Below are positions 33,823-40,133 of a DNA stretch of 64,000 nt, piece after piece. Below the pieces are notes generated by a model. The model searched no databases. It worked only from the letters and a program-made list of their open reading frames with translations, and was not told where the DNA came from. Position numbers and translations under genes: made by a program. The stretch is from contig JAZUMZ010000085.1 of assembly GCA_045603885.1 (NCBI GenBank), positions 132 to 64,131 of the forward strand. Direction: 5' to 3'. Every line of letters begins with the position of its first letter. Positions within the stretch are counted from its first letter, which is position 1. This DNA comes from Bacteroidaceae bacterium. Lineage in GTDB: Bacteria; Bacteroidota; Bacteroidia; Bacteroidales; Bacteroidaceae.

Positions 33823-34293
33823 ATGAAGAAAATACTATTTTCTTACTTTGCAGGGATTATGGCATTAGCTCTGCTGAGCGTGAGTCTTATCTCATGTAGT
33901 AGCGATGACGACGATGATGACTCTGGTTCAACAAACACCGAATTAATTCAGAAGCTACAAGGTTCCTGGGCATTTCAGAGAGGTACGGAAACAATTATGG
34001 GCATGACAATCACAATGGACAGATCCTCCCTGGACGAGATGAGAAGGTCTATGGAACAAGCAATGGGAGAAAAAGTTGAGTTTTGGGATGAGACATTAAC
34101 GTTCAGCGGTAACAAAGTAAATGGAACAAGTTTTACGTTGAATGGAAATCAAATCATTCTTGAAGGAATGGATATCATGGATGGTATAAGTATCTCCGTC
34201 AAATCCGTTAATTCATCAAAATTAGTCTTGCGAGAGTCTATAAGCCTTGAGGGATTAAGTATAGATGCTGATATGGAATATAGAAAAATGTAA
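33823..34293 (+). CDS. Surface-exposed lipoprotein, lipocalin-like, unknown function
   Basis: Lipobox LISC followed by SSDDDDDD, a strongly acidic lipoprotein export signal of the Bacteroidota type. A GSW (GxW) motif starts the mature domain. 156 aa. Confidence 0.7.
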   Translation: MKKILFSYFAGIMALALLSVSLISCSSDDDDDDSGSTNTELIQKLQGSWAFQRGTETIMGMTITMDRSSLDEMRRSMEQAMGEKVEFWDETLTFSGNKVNGTSFTLNGNQIILEGMDIMDGISISVKSVNSSKLVLRESISLEGLSIDADMEYRKM

Positions 34294-34340
34294 TATAATA
34301 TTTACCCCTTTATTGTTTAACCCTTTAATTTATCAAGCTT

Positions 34341-34880
34341 ATGAAAAAGATTATTTCTATTGCATGTATGATGCTTATTAGCACCACAATGTTTGCTCAG
34401 TCTGGCAAATTTTCAGCCGGTATCAACTTAAATTATGGTCTGCATTCGGACTTCAAGAACTTTGGTGGAGGAATAAAACTACAGTATGAGTTCATTGAGA
34501 ATGTTCGCGCTGAAGTATCAGGAAACTATTTTCTCAAGAAAGATGATTGCACCATGTGGGATGCCAACTTAAACTTACAGTATGTATTCCACGTAGGAGA
34601 CAAACTTGGCATATATCCGCTTGCTGGCCTCACCGTATTAGGTGTTAAAGTTGACATCCCTTCAACAGAAATACCGAGTTATAATATCGGAGGAATGCAT
34701 ATCGGAGGTGGAACTGTTGGAGGAGGATCAGCTGATGACACGAAAATAGGAGGAAATATCGGAGCTGGTATTGAATATTATCTTAGTGACAAGTTCAAGG
34801 TAAACGCCGAAGCTAAATATCAATATGTTAAGGACTGGGATCGACCTGTTGTCTCTATTGGTGCTTCATACATTTTTTAG
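34341..34880 (+). CDS. Small outer-membrane beta-barrel protein (OmpW/opacity-porin-like)
   Basis: Signal peptide ...MFAQ|S. Alternating hydrophobic beta-strand pattern with Gly-rich loops. C-terminus ...SIGASYIF. Confidence 0.75.
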   Translation: MKKIISIACMMLISTTMFAQSGKFSAGINLNYGLHSDFKNFGGGIKLQYEFIENVRAEVSGNYFLKKDDCTMWDANLNLQYVFHVGDKLGIYPLAGLTVLGVKVDIPSTEIPSYNIGGMHIGGGTVGGGSADDTKIGGNIGAGIEYYLSDKFKVNAEAKYQYVKDWDRPVVSIGASYIF

Positions 34881-34890
34881 TTATACTTTT

Positions 34891-34920
34891 GGGGGGTGGT
34901 CCGACTTCTGGACCACCCCC
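34891..34920 (+). terminator. Strong GC hairpin after the barrel gene (no T-run; intra-operon attenuator or RNA-stability element rather than a full terminator)
   Basis: GGGGGGTGGTCC gacttct GGACCACCCCC. Confidence 0.4.
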
Positions 34921-37061: not shown

Positions 37062-37069
37062 GATTCAAC

Positions 37070-38257
37070 ATGAAAATATTTCTTATCATACATTTTTTGA
37101 CTTACTTTTGCATCACAATCCATGCCCAGTCTATAGGTGAATTGCTTTCGTTCAAAACCACGAAGACTATTACCTCCCAGTCCAAAGCACGAACAGCATT
37201 AAAGGAAAAGAAAATAGACGATGCGCTGTTTCTTTACTCAGAATCAGTAAATAAAGCTCAGGAAAACCGTAATAGCGGAAAGGGAGTTGATGGCGATTTA
37301 CTAGCAGAGTACGCTTATACACTTGCCCTTCATCATGATTATGAGTTGGCATTGATGAACATTGACAGGGCAAGAGCCTTAAATGGGAAGTATATAGATT
37401 TTTTTTCGGGACAAGTGTTGTCGCTTATGAATTATGATAATGCAGCAAATGAGTTTATAAGAAATGCAACAGTTCCAGACTGGATTCAAAGTGTATATTT
37501 AGAATTAAATCATCAATTCAAAGGTTCTGGAGTAGTTATACAAGAGAATCCCTATGAAACATTAAAGCGCGCAAACAGACTTGCAGCAAACAGGCAAACA
37601 ATACAAAGTATTGCAATGTTTGAGGAGCTTAAAACCACATTCAACACCGTTCCTATCATTTATGTGGATTACAGCACAGTATGGGAAAGTATCAGCAATT
37701 ACGGATATGCAGCACTGCTATTGAAACAAGGCATAGATTTAATGCCTGAAAACACATCTAATCGACAGGTGTTTTCAAACCACCTGACAAAGATCAATGA
37801 TACGAAAAAGAAAATTGATTCAACACCTTGGTTTCGGAAACTACTGAGTGCAGATTCGCCAAAACTAATGACGTATATCGGTGCATCAGCAGCCAAGGAC
37901 ATCTATTCCCTGAATGGAAGAATGGGCATTTATACAAGCAAGAAATTCAGTGCGTCATTAAACTTTGGAACGAGTTATGCAAACGAACAATTTTCAGGCA
38001 GTATTGGGCTTTCTGCATACAAAGCCTGGGGAGTCCTATTTGGAGGTATGGGAGTTACCGACCAATTCAGTAAAGATTCAAACACAATCAGTCTAACCCC
38101 CTCTGTCGGTCTCACATTCCTCAATAAAACTCAGACATCATCCCTTGACATAGCGTTAAGCGGATACATCCCTTTCAGTAAAGATGGTAAATTCAGCTAC
38201 AGCGTTTCAATCGGCAAAACTATATATTTTGACTTTAACGGATTATTCAAGAAATGA
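37070..38257 (+). CDS. Exported protein, N-terminal TPR-like helical region and C-terminal beta-barrel-like region; unknown function
   Basis: Signal peptide ...TIHAQ|S. Helical repeats occupy aa 30-230. The last ~130 aa show an alternating beta-strand pattern (GIYTSKKFSASLNFGTSY...SYSVSIGKTIYFDF). Confidence 0.6.
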   Translation: MKIFLIIHFLTYFCITIHAQSIGELLSFKTTKTITSQSKARTALKEKKIDDALFLYSESVNKAQENRNSGKGVDGDLLAEYAYTLALHHDYELALMNIDRARALNGKYIDFFSGQVLSLMNYDNAANEFIRNATVPDWIQSVYLELNHQFKGSGVVIQENPYETLKRANRLAANRQTIQSIAMFEELKTTFNTVPIIYVDYSTVWESISNYGYAALLLKQGIDLMPENTSNRQVFSNHLTKINDTKKKIDSTPWFRKLLSADSPKLMTYIGASAAKDIYSLNGRMGIYTSKKFSASLNFGTSYANEQFSGSIGLSAYKAWGVLFGGMGVTDQFSKDSNTISLTPSVGLTFLNKTQTSSLDIALSGYIPFSKDGKFSYSVSIGKTIYFDFNGLFKK

Positions 38258-39240
38258 AGACAAAAATAATACTATTATGCTTGGTTCTTATAGCCATATC
38301 CTCTTCTGTTGATGCCCAAATCCATAGTAGAAGCAGACGAAAGGGAAGACCAACAAGAACTACCCATGTCTCAAGAGTAAAAAGGCAACAATCATATCAA
38401 AAACAGAATAAAAAAGTAAAGACAGATAATACGACAAATAATAATGATGTCAGAACAGACACTATTGTCTATTCCAAACCTATTGCTAAAACAAAGAAGA
38501 AAAAGGATGAGACCAATTATAAAAGCGTGTCCGAACCGATGGTGGCAAGATATCTGCGTGGTGGCTTTGCCAAAGACAAGAAACTCCATCTGATAACAAA
38601 CTCGAACTATGCAACCATGCATGACAATCAGAAAAGTGAGGTGCTTGGTAAAATAGCTCAAGAATTCGCTGGATATGACATCACACTATATACAAGCAGC
38701 CAAGGAAGGGAATTGTGGACAACAGACGGTAATAACGTGAAATGTCTCAGTAAATGGAATAATGATAGTTTACATATTGAAGACTATCTGCCATTGGAAC
38801 TCAAAAGAAATGGACTTTCAAAAGTGTTCTACTATATCGGAGGAACATTCAGTGGCAGTGATGGAAACAGCAATGGAAGCCTAAATCTTCGAGCAGGAAC
38901 CTACCTGTATAAAAACATGTTAGATGCGTCCTTCACACTGAATGTTGGATACAGCTCTTCTAATGGAGAAAGTGATTTTTCAGGTGATATGGGTTTAGAC
39001 AGCAGGGCATATCTTCCCTTAAAAATCAAAAATTTCAATTTTTCCCCTTACGTCGGGGCTGGCATATCTTGGTCATATGCTCCTGATAGTTTTTTTGAAT
39101 TACGTATTTTAGCTGGTGGATGTTGGTTTGTTGGAACTGGTAGTTTCGACCTTGGTTTTCAATATGGAACTAAAAGTGATTACTCGGTCACATTAGGATA
39201 CACATTCCGAATTCCTTCACAAAAGAAAAAGAACAAATGA
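38254..39240 (+). CDS. Exported protein with a highly basic low-complexity N-region and C-terminal beta-barrel-like domain; unknown function
   Basis: Its ATG overlaps the previous stop (ATGA). Signal peptide ...SVDAQ|I, then an Arg/Lys-rich stretch of ~70 aa. C-terminal alternating strands (SLNLRAGTYLY...SFDLGFQYGT...SVTLGYTFRI). Confidence 0.6.
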   Translation: MKTKIILLCLVLIAISSSVDAQIHSRSRRKGRPTRTTHVSRVKRQQSYQKQNKKVKTDNTTNNNDVRTDTIVYSKPIAKTKKKKDETNYKSVSEPMVARYLRGGFAKDKKLHLITNSNYATMHDNQKSEVLGKIAQEFAGYDITLYTSSQGRELWTTDGNNVKCLSKWNNDSLHIEDYLPLELKRNGLSKVFYYIGGTFSGSDGNSNGSLNLRAGTYLYKNMLDASFTLNVGYSSSNGESDFSGDMGLDSRAYLPLKIKNFNFSPYVGAGISWSYAPDSFFELRILAGGCWFVGTGSFDLGFQYGTKSDYSVTLGYTFRIPSQKKKNK

Positions 39241-40133
39241 GACTATCAAAACTTCTATTGACATGGAATCTATTTCATGTCTTTCAATGCTTTACATTAG
39301 CACAGCAGTTTCAATACCCTACACCTCCTGACAGCTTGACAAACAGACAAGAACGAACAGTTTTTATGGCAGAGAATTTTTGGGACAAGGAGAGTGTTGG
39401 AGACAGCCTAAACTTCAAAACACCGACTCTACTTCTCGACTACATATATCTTATAAGACAAATAGAGAATGATGACTTACAGCATAGTTCAATCACAAAT
39501 TTCATTTCATTATGTGCTGAGAATCCATCCACAATATGTCTTGTACTATATTGGCTTGACAGCATTCTATATGATGCTCATTCACCACAATATGATGAGC
39601 CTATATATTTGATGTTTTTAAATGAAGTATTAAAGTCCTGTATAGAATCTGATATCAAAATATTCCCAGCAAAACGTGTGAAGCAATTATATAAGAATCA
39701 GAAAGGAAAGCCAGCAAATAATTTTTCTGTGTATGACAAAAAAGGTAGTAAGTTTAGTTTAAATGATGTTCAGTCACCATTAATCCTACTTATTTTTAAT
39801 AATCCAGAATGTTCATTATGTCAGATAGCAGAAGAGGAGATCCAAAAAGATGAGATTATTCAAGACCTGATAAATAATGATAGTCTGAAAATAGTAGCTG
39901 TATCTCCAGATGCGGATTATGCGACATGGCTCGCTCACGATTATCCGAATAACTGGATTGTTGGAATTGACAAGAAACGAAAAATCTTTAGGAGACAATT
40001 GTTTGACATACAGTACTTGCCTTCCATGTATTTATTAGACAATGAAAAAAAAATTGTTATTAAAGAAGCCGATTATGATAGAATTAAAAATTATTTCAGA
40101 CATGCATACCCTTCTGTGAAGAAGTGTTTTTAG
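39237..40133 (+). CDS. DUF5106-like N-domain fused to a thioredoxin-fold (TlpA/AhpC-like) domain
   Basis: ATGA overlap with the previous gene. Signal peptide ...FTLAQ|Q. The thioredoxin-like block LLIFNNPECSLCQ contains CxxC and is followed by KIVAVSPD. Confidence 0.65.
   Translation: MRLSKLLLTWNLFHVFQCFTLAQQFQYPTPPDSLTNRQERTVFMAENFWDKESVGDSLNFKTPTLLLDYIYLIRQIENDDLQHSSITNFISLCAENPSTICLVLYWLDSILYDAHSPQYDEPIYLMFLNEVLKSCIESDIKIFPAKRVKQLYKNQKGKPANNFSVYDKKGSKFSLNDVQSPLILLIFNNPECSLCQIAEEEIQKDEIIQDLINNDSLKIVAVSPDADYATWLAHDYPNNWIVGIDKKRKIFRRQLFDIQYLPSMYLLDNEKKIVIKEADYDRIKNYFRHAYPSVKKCF

Follow-up and report, generated by a model that had tools for sequence, protein, structure and literature searches.

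Which system do the seven exported proteins of island A belong to, and do their genes act as one unit? This gene cluster lies in the window, the whole 64,000-nt stretch of DNA that was analyzed. The original prediction described it as an undescribed, translationally coupled seven-gene operon for the stoichiometric co-production of an envelope complex, with no recognizable enzyme. The observation was confirmed, and the interpretation was partly supported: in place of seven genes of equal status in one complex, the cluster appears to combine a conserved chassis, a polymorphic cargo, an optional partner (P4) and a lineage-specific accessory (P2).

Gene Organization and Export Signals

Seven open reading frames, P1–P7, were found at positions 33823–40133, each exactly where it had been predicted:

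33823..34293, + strand: P1, 156-aa lipoprotein (lipobox, Cys25 then SSDDDDDD), conserved module member
34341..34880, + strand: P2, small outer-membrane beta-barrel (179 aa; C-terminus ...SYIF; Pfam OMP_b-brl, E 1.9e-17)
34891..34920, + strand: intercistronic G+C-rich hairpin lying 11 nt past the stop codon of P2 and lacking a clear U-run
35072..36232, + strand: P3, 386-aa exported protein with an N-domain of ~170 aa and a C-terminal domain (~180–386) of unassigned type
36225..37061, + strand: P4, 278-aa exported beta-rich protein, its first 8 nt shared with the end of P3
37070..38257, + strand: P5, 395 aa, TPR-like helical domain (~36–260) and 8-stranded beta-barrel (265–387), AlphaFold2 pLDDT 80
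38254..39240, + strand: P6, 328 aa, signal peptide, basic disordered stretch, alpha/beta domain and barrel, AlphaFold2 pLDDT 68 (moderate confidence)
39237..40133, + strand: P7, 298-aa exported DUF5106 and TlpA/ResA-like thioredoxin-fold protein (Pfam and PDB matches)
40154..40198, + strand: intrinsic terminator-like hairpin (dG -27.6 kcal/mol, z -3.9), followed by AUCAUUUUUCU (U-run)

Read directly from the sequence, the P3/P4 overlap is ATGAATAA, and the P5/P6 and P6/P7 overlaps are ATGA; all three recur in homologous loci. The P1/P2 and P2/P3 gaps are 47 and 191 nt, respectively. Because a strong hairpin follows the second gene and tight packing is limited to P3–P7, the cluster is better read as two plus five genes (P1–P2, then P3–P7). 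The predicted coupling and stoichiometric co-production hold for P3–P7 but not for P1–P2, which are set apart by these gaps and the hairpin. The stem of the latter alone has a dG of -26.7 kcal/mol, and the 83-nt stretch containing it folds at -35.1 kcal/mol (z -4.7); its position, with a different sequence, is kept in L001 and L003, which belong to two other lineages.

The G+C content of the island A genes was 0.32–0.39 versus 0.50 in the flanking TonB-dependent receptor and gdh genes, and the cluster ends with its own terminator, both as originally described. The AT-rich gene cluster is real, since independent contigs carry orthologues with 55–70% identity in unchanged order. Each of P1–P7 had a single hydrophobic segment, located at the N-terminus, in agreement with the predicted signal peptides. 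Gln stood directly past the likely cleavage site in all six non-lipoproteins (P2–P7), as the Q-rule for signal-peptide cleavage describes (PMC5837995). Every part of the module is exported through Sec, and three of the proteins form 8-stranded barrels in the outer membrane.

No specific match to any known system was found in Pfam, NCBIfam, PADLOC, a PDB sequence search, Foldseek (P5 and P6 models) or the literature, and no search placed the cluster in fimbrial, curli, PUL, T9SS, two-partner or Slam systems. Island A is thus, as proposed, an undescribed envelope module.

The Polymorphic Protein P3 and the P4 Slot

The ATG start of P3 is backed by N-terminal alignment with homologues. Its N-domain contains four conserved, near-invariant cysteines (39, 74, 93 and 102) and the motif G.SF.S.N.ANEI..W..D. 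Only two full-length non-self homologues were found among 5.8e9 proteins; similarity to relatives was confined to residues ~8–170/240, and the C-termini were unrelated. Among 1.84e9 representatives, the N-domain was present in 130 clusters (132–766 aa), always at the N-terminus, and at least 19 unrelated groups of C-termini followed it. The largest, Lipase_3 (class-3 lipase), accounted for 21 of the 82 members scanned; lipase-type relatives in L004, L009, L134 and L139 have the nucleophile elbow GHSLGGGLA and match the T6SS phospholipase 7UBZ_B (E 1.2e-9). The C-terminus of the window P3 had no detectable family in Pfam, NCBIfam and further searches. The claim that no enzyme is recognizable therefore stands for the cargo of this copy but not for the lipases of its relatives in the same slot, nor for the probable oxidoreductase P7. 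From these comparisons, P3 is a polymorphic protein, constant in its N-terminal domain and swapped between strains at its C-terminus, and most plausibly a cargo. No obvious immunity gene was found 3' of lipase-type cargos, where P5 begins immediately; antibacterial toxins usually have such a gene, and its absence at this position is unusual.

Homologues of P4 were identified in L001–L003 (64%) and L011 (35%). The same slot in L136–L138, L140–L141 and GCA_016648615.1 was occupied by unrelated-looking proteins of about 280 aa, and in L007/L008 a P4-like domain of ~270 aa was fused to P5. P4 had no detectable family in Pfam, NCBIfam and further searches; the "propeller-like" assignment had sub-threshold matches only. 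P4 is optional and evolves fast; it occurs with some C-terminal types of P3 only.

The P5–P6–P7 Genes

The "barrel-like" P5 and P6 proved to have 8-stranded barrels in AlphaFold2 models. For P5, Foldseek returned only OmpA/OmpX/NspA barrels and TPR proteins, all with E>1e-3, and its 223 homologues are unnamed except for one generic JGI label, "TPR repeat protein". The highly basic N-region predicted for P6 corresponds to a disordered stretch (~19–90) with 21 K/R in 70 aa, followed in the model by a small alpha/beta domain (95–169) and the barrel (191–318). Foldseek found generic barrels only for P6, and the sole name among 167 homologues was "hypothetical protein [Prevotella sp.]". The P5 and P6 barrels are weakly related (hhalign E 8e-5).

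In P7, Pfam recognized the anticipated DUF5106 (7.9e-16), as well as Thioredoxin_8 and AhpC-TSA (2e-6), the CxxC motif being CSLC (residues 192–195, 39810–39821); the full-length protein matched PDB 4YOD, a "thioredoxin-like protein" (E 1e-31). P7 is accordingly a predicted CxxC thiol-disulfide oxidoreductase. In every locus examined, P5–P6–P7 lay directly downstream of a P3-family gene, with P4 between them in some. These three genes (about 45–65% identity), usually together with P1, form the conserved chassis.

P1 and P2

The lipobox and acidic C-SSDDDDDD signal of P1 were found as predicted; the "lipocalin-like" fold was not significantly supported, and no family match was obtained in Pfam, NCBIfam and further searches. 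Judging by the surface lipoprotein export signal (LES) rule (PMC5080379, PMC6222051), its poly-Asp signal is probably of the surface-export/OMV-packing type. Homologues with 54–71% identity lead the module in L001–L003, L007, L011, L106 and L139–L141; the module is usually led by P1, otherwise by a BACON/DUF5036 lipoprotein. P2, correctly predicted as a small outer-membrane barrel, was limited to the window and L001–L003 and is a lineage-specific accessory.

Promoter and Leader

The Bacteroidetes promoter consensus consists of -33 TTTG and -7 TAnnTTTG. The following elements precede P1:

33424..33455, + strand: Bacteroidetes-type promoter-like site, TTTG ... TAATTTTG, predicted from the sequence
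33461..33822, + strand: conserved leader, predicted 5' UTR of ~360 nt, ~90% match to the island B leader

An identical promoter-like sequence lies upstream of island B. The leader starts with the motif GACTCAGTCAGCCC (33461–33474). According to pair counts in the consensus structure, a long-range helix is formed by GGCGTGGG (33675–33682) and CCCACGTC (33755–33762); it encloses a hairpin whose end is GGCAATGCGAGAGCC (33711–33725) and is followed by a U-run (33763–33768). A late motif, GCTGAACCGGGGTGCGCAGC, is located at 33786–33805. Rfam contained no match to the leader.

The claim that the leader is shared with island B was correct in that positions 33380–33814 and 48538–48976 are about 90% identical, but it is not private to the two islands. 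Its core motif was found in at least 120 metagenome contigs, an ORF beginning 82–103 nt 3' of it in most listed loci, and the element precedes many other exported-protein, RiPP and LRR-protein operons. It is a widespread, conserved and structured element of roughly 300 nt. P1–P2 would share this long regulated leader with P3–P7, and the intervening hairpin probably sets the ratio between the two groups.

Distribution and Mobility

The order P3–(P4)–P5–P6–P7 with 4-nt overlaps was kept in 13 distinct loci with different flanks. In searches of limited sensitivity, the P5–P7 chassis was seen in Prevotella-type contigs only, an apparent restriction of the module. A relaxase/NikA/transposase adjoins the module in L139, and P5 is interrupted by an IS in L136–L138. 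A repeat common to island B (59428–59522, 84%) lies on the right-hand side of island A:

40298..40392, - strand: hipA-like 3'-end remnant, …HKILDPYCHRWNIV

An intact hipA-like gene is located beside island B. TA-gene remnants sit at the island borders.

Low G+C content, the mobile-element neighbor, IS and TA remnants are signs from which we infer that the module is horizontally mobile.

Proposed Mechanism and Alternative Explanations

We consider the chances about even that island A encodes a mobile module for polymorphic effectors, built around Sec-exported P3 and equipped with its own outer-membrane platform for docking and disulfide handling. The P5–P6–P7 trio would recognize the constant N-terminal domain of P3 and not its variable end. 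P7 would form, reduce or isomerize the two likely disulfides of P3, while the TPR domain of P5 together with P6 would dock it to the outer membrane from the periplasmic side. Where P4 occurs, it may be a partner matched to the C-terminal type of the cargo (chaperone, adaptor or immunity-like) and may act on P5, its fusion partner in one lineage. Neither a translocon-sized barrel nor an ATPase or known secretion component was found in the module loci, and an 8-stranded barrel does not let a folded protein through, so the exit of P3 is not explained by the module's own parts. Most simply, the cargo would leave the platform in the lumen or on the surface of outer-membrane vesicles, accompanied by the surface lipoprotein P1; alternatively, it may use a further translocation step outside the recognized parts. 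Once released, it could be an effector that targets competitors or host membranes.

An unlikely alternative is a PUL-accessory-like module, not a weapon, displaying enzymes on the surface or OMVs for nutrient acquisition: P3 hydrolases (lipases and others) would be tethered by the shared N-domain to a P5/P6 scaffold beside P1 or BACON proteins. The BACON/DUF5036 lipoproteins adjoining lipase-type cargos are typical surface glycan-binding proteins of Bacteroidota, and the P1 signal (PMC6222051), the lack of an immunity gene 3' of lipase cargos and source samples that include human-gut and rumen-type metagenome records also fit it. However, SusC/SusD and TonB-dependent transporters were absent from every locus examined, most C-terminal groups, including that of the window, lack a hydrolase signature, and among solved structures an antibacterial T6SS effector is closest to the lipase domain. 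A constant N-domain with extreme turnover at the C-terminus, located in AT-rich mobile islands, is moreover a conflict-system pattern.

Still less probable is a housekeeping-like complex that exports nothing and maintains the envelope of the producer itself, for example by outer-membrane lipid remodeling through a periplasmic phospholipase or by an outer-membrane tether made from the basic linker of P6 and the TPR protein. The conserved non-lipoprotein parts all face the periplasm in the models, the basic region of P6 could bind peptidoglycan or anionic lipids, and neither translocon nor immunity gene was identified; against this, the family is patchy, apparently confined to one genus and rare (the 130 N-domain clusters above), it occupies varying chromosomal sites, one copy is disrupted by an IS and another linked to a mobile element, G+C is low, C-termini are polymorphic, and the leader is common to RiPP and LRR-protein operons. 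Divergent membership in a characterized system (type V pili, curli/Fap, T9SS cargo/accessory, two-partner secretion or Slam/T11SS) is highly improbable: a TPR joined to a beta-barrel is reminiscent of Slam and of the polysaccharide exporters PgaA/PelB, PelBC, PgaA, FapF and FhaC were among weak Foldseek matches, and one P4-slot protein had a sub-threshold PorZ match (E 0.002), but all such matches had E>1e-3 and covered a generic barrel or TPR only. The barrels are 8-stranded, not 12–18-stranded, and neither Pfam/NCBIfam signatures of these systems nor a T9SS C-terminal domain, POTRA or DUF560 were found. A polymorphic-effector module with its own docking platform, if true, suggests a new way to handle or deliver secreted effectors.

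Comparison with Known Systems

In Slam/type XI secretion, a TPR domain and a DUF560 14-stranded barrel export neighboring surface lipoproteins. P5 likewise has an N-terminal periplasmic TPR and a C-terminal barrel, is encoded beside presumed substrates, and shares its operon with a surface lipoprotein (P1). In contrast to Slam, its barrel has 8 strands and no DUF560 signature, the main cargo P3 is not a lipoprotein and has its conserved domain at the N-terminus, and the module contains a second barrel protein and a thioredoxin.

Like P2 (OMP_b-brl), P5 and P6 resemble OmpA/OmpX/NspA-type 8-stranded barrels in their C-terminal domains (Foldseek TM to target 0.5–0.66 for P5 and P6). Unlike OmpA-type proteins, P5 and P6 have N-terminal periplasmic TPR or alpha/beta domains in place of a C-terminal peptidoglycan-binding OmpA_C, and belong to no sequence-level family. 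P7 shares the CxxC thioredoxin fold of TlpA/ResA/DsbE-type oxidoreductases, known members of which serve cytochrome or copper-protein maturation; unlike theirs, its gene has a constant place in one operon with that of an exported four-Cys protein. Its full-length relative 4YOD is a DUF5106 and thioredoxin-like protein without assigned function, and no substrate is reported in the literature for any DUF5106 protein.

The Enterobacter cloacae T6SS phospholipase effector Tle (7UBZ) is antibacterial (PMC11470151). The lipase-type P3 relatives, though not the window P3, share its nucleophile elbow and ~100 surrounding residues; they differ in having neither T6SS context nor an ankyrin immunity protein, and in carrying the lipase behind a Sec signal and a four-Cys domain.

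Polymorphic toxins place a variable toxin at the C-terminus, behind a conserved N-terminal trafficking domain (Zhang et al. 2012, PMC3482391). Similarly, one P3 N-domain carries many unrelated C-terminal domains, the lipase type has its nearest match in an antibacterial T6SS effector, mobile islands of low G+C harbor the loci, and a small variable gene (the P4 slot) follows the cargo in some loci. Unlike in polymorphic toxins, the N-domain does not match any known trafficking domain, there is no link to a known secretion system, and no cognate immunity gene was identified, with none at all 3' of lipase-type cargos; the conserved partners of the module are instead two 8-stranded barrels and a thioredoxin-fold protein.

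Gene organization of island A

Island A, the cluster of genes for exported proteins at 33823–40133 of the forward strand, was originally predicted to be a seven-gene, translationally coupled operon. All seven open reading frames were present at the predicted positions; their products are designated P1 to P7.

33823–34293, forward strand: P1, 156 aa
34341–34880, forward strand: P2, 179 aa
35072–36232, forward strand: P3, 386 aa
36225–37061, forward strand: P4, 278 aa
37070–38257, forward strand: P5, 395 aa
38254–39240, forward strand: P6, 328 aa
39237–40133, forward strand: P7, 298 aa

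ATG was taken as the start of P3 because homologues align from residue 8. The predicted overlaps, ATGAATAA at P3/P4 and ATGA at both P5/P6 and P6/P7, were found when the junctions were read. Tight packing is confined to P3–P7; P1 and P2 are set apart. A very stable hairpin (34891–34920) starts 11 nt past the P2 stop codon within a 191-nt gap, and hairpins of other sequence stand at the matching site in two related metagenome loci, L001 (~5309–5335) and L003 (~1373–1409). We therefore read the unit as P1–P2 followed by P3–P7, the hairpin likely being an internal attenuator or an mRNA-stabilising element that sets the ratio between the two parts. The cluster is closed by its own terminator, as predicted: a hairpin at 40154–40198 (dG −27.6, z −3.9) followed by a U-run. 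A pattern scan for sigma-70 promoters and terminators performed no better than on shuffled sequences; it missed both hairpins owing to the atypical form of the loops and U-runs. The G+C content of the genes was 0.32–0.39 versus 0.50 in the flanking TonB-dependent receptor and gdh genes, in agreement with the AT-richness noted before.

Each product carried one hydrophobic segment, located N-terminally, and no internal ones, consistent with a signal peptide on every protein. Gln directly followed the likely cleavage site in all six non-lipoproteins, as the Bacteroidetes Q-rule predicts (PMC5837995). P1 contained a lipobox with Cys25 followed by SSDDDDDD; in Bacteroidota, a Cys with an acidic run signals exposure at the surface and packing into vesicles (PMC5080379, PMC6222051).

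Protein families and predicted structures

Among the seven proteins, only P2 and P7 matched Pfam or NCBIfam families. P2 was identified as a small outer-membrane barrel (OMP_b-brl, PF13505, 1.9e-17, 64.4 bits against a cutoff of 28.7) with an aromatic C-terminus (...SYIF), and P7 as an exported DUF5106/thioredoxin-fold protein (DUF5106, 7.9e-16) with a CxxC motif, CSLC, at 192–195; both assignments had been made in the original prediction. P7 also matched Thioredoxin_8 and AhpC-TSA of Pfam (2e-6), ResA of NCBIfam (3.9e-8) and, in a PDB sequence search, 4YOD (E 1e-31), an unannotated ‘thioredoxin-like protein’. Literature searches on DUF5106 found no paper. When the PDB was searched by sequence, P1, P4 and the profiles of P5 and P6 had chance-level matches only, and an exact-sequence lookup of P3 gave none. 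No PADLOC anti-phage defence model matched any of the seven proteins. For the description of P4 as propeller-like, all hints were below threshold.

AlphaFold2 models of P5 and P6 were made from 67–68 homologues and bore out the expected domains. P5 was modeled (pLDDT 80) with TPR-like helices at residues 36–260 and eight beta strands at 265–387. In P6 (pLDDT 68), a disordered basic region at residues 19–90, with 21 K/R in 70 residues, precedes a small α/β domain (95–169) and an eight-stranded barrel (191–318). The two barrels are weakly akin (hhalign E 8e-5). Foldseek comparison of both models with the PDB, a check proposed with the original prediction, returned OmpA, OmpX and NspA barrels and generic TPR proteins, all at E > 1e-3. 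Eight-stranded barrels anchor proteins in the membrane and are not protein channels, so the soluble domains of P5 and P6 are expected on the periplasmic side. Weak Foldseek matches to PelBC, PgaA, FapF and FhaC were dismissed as evidence for an exporter, both barrels being eight-stranded.

The P3 family and its interchangeable C-termini

Full-length P3 had just two non-self homologues among 5.8 billion proteins; P5 and P6 had 223 and 167 homologues, respectively, all 50–70% identical. Where names were given, they read ‘hypothetical protein [Prevotella sp.]’; the one exception was a generic JGI label, ‘TPR repeat protein’, for a P5 homologue. P3-like genes of related loci matched the P3 of the window at 29–39% identity over residues ~8–170 only. 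In the closest types, similarity reached residue 240 or 312; beyond that, the C-termini were unrelated.

The N-terminal 180 residues of P3, searched against 1.84 billion representative proteins, yielded 130 clusters of 132–766 aa, with the domain N-terminal in all of them. The alignment conserved the cleavage site AxA|Q, R78, G120, W135, four cysteines (C39, C74, C93 and C102, the last invariant) and the motif G.SF.S.N.ANEI..W..D...AL...TGD..FD. Beyond residue 190, at least 19 groups could be told apart in the family, none of them similar to another. The largest, a class-3 lipase, accounted for 47 of 115 proteins; Lipase_3 was detected in 21 of the 82 members scanned, and no second Pfam family recurred. 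The non-lipase C-terminal groups, including that of the window, matched no family, and neither a glycine zipper nor a transmembrane segment was found in the C-terminus of the window P3. Lipase members carry GHSLGGGLA, and their nearest solved relative is 7UBZ_B (E 1.2e-9), an antibacterial phospholipase effector of the Enterobacter cloacae T6SS (PMC11470151).

Comparative genomics of the module

In all 13 distinct loci examined, the gene order was P3-like gene, optional gene of ~280 aa, P5, P6 and P7, with the same 4-nt overlaps, while the chromosomal flanks varied. Comparative genomics thus retains an undescribed envelope module and replaces the predicted seven-protein complex by a conserved chassis (P5, P6 and P7) with a polymorphic cargo (P3).

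P1 is as conserved as the chassis (54–71% identity) and heads the module in the window and in L001–3, L007, L011, L106, L139 and L140–141; a BACON/DUF5036 lipoprotein occupies its position in other loci. P2 is confined to the lineage of the window (window and L001–3). Clear homologues of P4 were found with window-type and L011-type cargos only; elsewhere, the position between cargo and P5 (the P4 slot) is occupied by other proteins of ~280 aa with a signal peptide and a similar beta-rich appearance. This variable gene lies 3′ of some cargo types and of no lipase type. In L007 and L008, a domain of the P4-slot type is fused to the N-terminus of P5, which argues that P4 works on P5.

Several neighboring genes were also recorded. 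The L139 copy adjoins relaxase, NikA and transposase genes, and WYL/WCX regulator genes recur upstream of related modules (L139). In L136–L138, the module is inactivated by an insertion sequence inside P5, whose DDE_Tnp_1 transposase (~2363–4312) separates the P4-slot gene from a 5′-truncated P5. Genes for SIR2-domain and metallo-beta-lactamase-fold proteins repeatedly lie 3′ of P7 in the same orientation (L009, L136–L141, GCA_016648615.1), sometimes overlapping its stop codon. Neither these nor the regulator genes stand beside the window copy. In L007, the interval between P1 and the P3-like gene (6231–8649) encodes a LysM protein, a MauE-like membrane protein and products of a 147-aa and a 64-aa gene; the MauE-like family is linked to disulfide handling.

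The leader and its proposed regulon

Island A and island B, a second island of the window (~48959–59257), had been predicted to share a promoter and leader, and their upstream sequences were indeed ~90% identical over ~440 nt. The conserved structured leader of ~300 nt was located as follows:

33461–33822: leader of island A
48618–48985: leader of island B
Loci L012–L131: leaders in metagenome contigs

A Bacteroidetes-type promoter-like site at 33424–33455 gives a predicted 5′ UTR of ~360 nt. At least 120 metagenome contigs from gut and rumen carried the core motif of the leader, AGTAKARACTCCCWYGYYYTTT; of the 120 contigs listed, 103 also had GGCAATGCGA upstream of it. In most loci listed, the first ORF starts 82–103 nt past the core motif; in the loci checked, a 5′ motif, GACTCAGTYAGCCC, lies ~270–300 nt upstream of the core.

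In the consensus fold of 75 sequences, a long-range helix, GRCGUGGG/CCCAYGYC, encloses a conserved hairpin and has the U-run immediately after it. In the helix, 97.8% of cells pair, versus 38–55% when the partners are slid; double changes were seen at nine pairs versus 2.5 in shuffles, and pair 121/224 was GC in 29 sequences, AU in 25 and GU in 20. Since the 75 sequences are closely related, this covariation gives the predicted helix moderate support, not proof. The repeated CGTGGG was also considered as the mark of an invertible promoter; this was set aside, as the RNA helix explains the covarying pair 121/224. No Rfam family came near its gathering score in 33300–33900 (gathering and E-value thresholds). 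The sole Rfam match in the window was a DUF805b RNA (52912–52944, forward strand; 44.1 bits against a gathering score of 35.6), located in island B between a Sel1-like gene and an ABC exporter gene.

The commonest operon behind the leader was found in L014, L040, L050, L058, L071, L073, L079, L082, L088 and ~20 more loci. It opens with one to several small proteins with Tat-type signals and Cys-rich tails of CXXX repeats, followed by a radical-SAM/SPASM maturase, a second maturase-like protein, a 91-aa protein and, lastly, proteins that we read as putative TatA and TatC. These names come solely from inspection of the sequences and a weak rSAM match; in our reading, this would be a Tat-exported RiPP-like system. 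Other operons behind the leader encode P1-like lipoproteins, leucine-rich-repeat surface proteins, an island-A-like module (L106) or island-B-like small proteins with a Sel1 protein (L105). The leader has the look of a conditional terminator, or of an sRNA with read-through, over a regulon of exported products, which fits a role of island A in conflict or surface remodelling. It is a candidate for a new Prevotella attenuator or riboswitch-like element, or for an sRNA with read-through.

Island B and the island borders

The borders of the two islands were marked by the following features:

32552–33060, reverse strand: Fic-like_C and HATPase_c_4 (RecG-like C-terminal) fragments in two overlapping ORFs
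40298–40392 and 59428–59522: right-hand repeat of 95 nt, 84% identity
59475–60278, reverse strand: hipA-like gene beside island B

The fragments at 32552–33060 are a decayed gene between the TonB-dependent receptor gene and the leader. The right-hand repeat corresponds to the 3′ end of a hipA-like toxin gene, which is intact at island B and survives as a remnant at island A; both islands are thus bounded by the leader on the left and by hipA sequence on the right. These common borders suggest that the islands arose by duplication or by cassette exchange through recombination between conserved flanks.

Island B (48959–59257) encodes some ten small exported proteins that are paralogues of one another; most of them end in D-(N/D/S)-W, and several have a GxW motif close to the N-terminus. 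Their genes surround those of a C39-peptidase ABC exporter (53415–55583) and a radical-SAM protein (55605–57218). Sel1-like proteins are encoded there at 52251–52862 and 58643–59257. Another Sel1-repeat protein (182 aa, 40385–40933, forward strand) is encoded just past the terminator of island A and the hipA remnant, and such proteins also flank the related modules L007 and L011 and the leader-driven loci L098, L105, L112 and L121.

Proposed role of the module

Since P5–P7 are constant while the C-terminus of the cargo varies, they must serve what is constant in it, and P5, P6 and P7 would thus act on the N-terminal domain of P3. A four-Cys domain beside a dedicated CxxC oxidoreductase points to disulfide work by P7, which may be formation, reduction or isomerisation of disulfides on that domain. 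With its TPR domain, a type that binds extended peptide motifs, P5 could dock P3 by the conserved linear motif on the inner side of the outer membrane, and P6 may be a second anchor. As the set includes no channel, the simplest way out would be by outer-membrane vesicles, into which P3 may be packed together with the surface lipoprotein P1; alternatively, P3 could leave through some further translocation step. The same proteins could instead display surface enzymes for nutrition or act in the producer’s own envelope. Both alternatives are kept alive because the lipase cargos are followed by no immunity gene and the effector reading leaves its export step unassigned.

The most far-reaching reading, which we put forward tentatively and consider less likely than not, is a new Prevotella route for protein handling and release. 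The four-Cys N-terminal domain would be an address tag, read by the TPR and α/β eight-stranded barrel pair, the DUF5106-thioredoxin and the surface lipoprotein, which would load or export interchangeable effectors (lipases and at least 18 other types). The ~300-nt leader RNA would switch this set as well as the Tat-exported CXXX-repeat RiPP operons and other surface-protein loci. P5 was considered as a generic TPR immunity protein; this was dropped, P5 being conserved whatever the cargo type.

In gut, oral and rumen communities, Prevotella species are dominant members that are poorly tractable, and to our knowledge little is known of their competition and surface display. If the module is an effector-handling system, its N-terminal tag would serve for cataloguing a repertoire of effector domains, DUF5106-thioredoxins would gain a first job, and non-lipoprotein cargo would have a candidate means of sorting to the outer membrane or vesicles in Bacteroidota. 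The common leader would mark out exported weapons and peptides as one regulon, and would itself be a new cis-regulatory RNA.

Comparison with known systems

The view of island A as an undescribed envelope module held against the known systems considered, fimbrial, curli and PUL components not being found by family searches. Literature searches on Prevotella polymorphic toxins, lipases and CXXX-repeat peptides found the module nowhere described. Neither the window cluster nor the 13 related loci encoded a component of a known secretion apparatus (T5, T6, T7, T9 and others). No protein of the seven matched a T9SS C-terminal sorting domain family (Pfam, NCBIfam). Curli families (CsgA/B/G/E/F) were not matched in Pfam, and for the type V pilins FimA and Mfa the sole NCBIfam match was to the Mfa1 family at the level of a signal peptide (E 0.11). 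The pair of a SusC-like transporter and a SusD-like lipoprotein that marks a PUL was missing from the cluster and from the related loci examined. The TonB-dependent receptor gene (29420–31408) has core G+C content and lies upstream, ~2.4 kb from the cluster and ~2.0 kb from the leader; the flanks of L001 lack it.

Two-partner secretion (T5b) has a 16-stranded Omp85-type TpsB with POTRA domains and a cargo with a TPS domain; no Pfam or NCBIfam match to these was obtained, the P5 and P6 barrels are eight-stranded, and Foldseek matches to FhaC/CdiB had E values of 0.06 or more. P5 resembles Slam/T11SS proteins in having an N-terminal periplasmic TPR domain on a barrel protein (helices 36–260; Foldseek TPR matches); however, there was no Pfam match to DUF560, and its barrel has 8 strands in the AlphaFold2 model, not 14. 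Island A is nearest in kind to polymorphic toxin systems: it differs from them in having none of their known delivery machines and no recognisable immunity gene, while the P3 family is built like polymorphic effectors, with interchangeable C-terminal domains behind a constant front.
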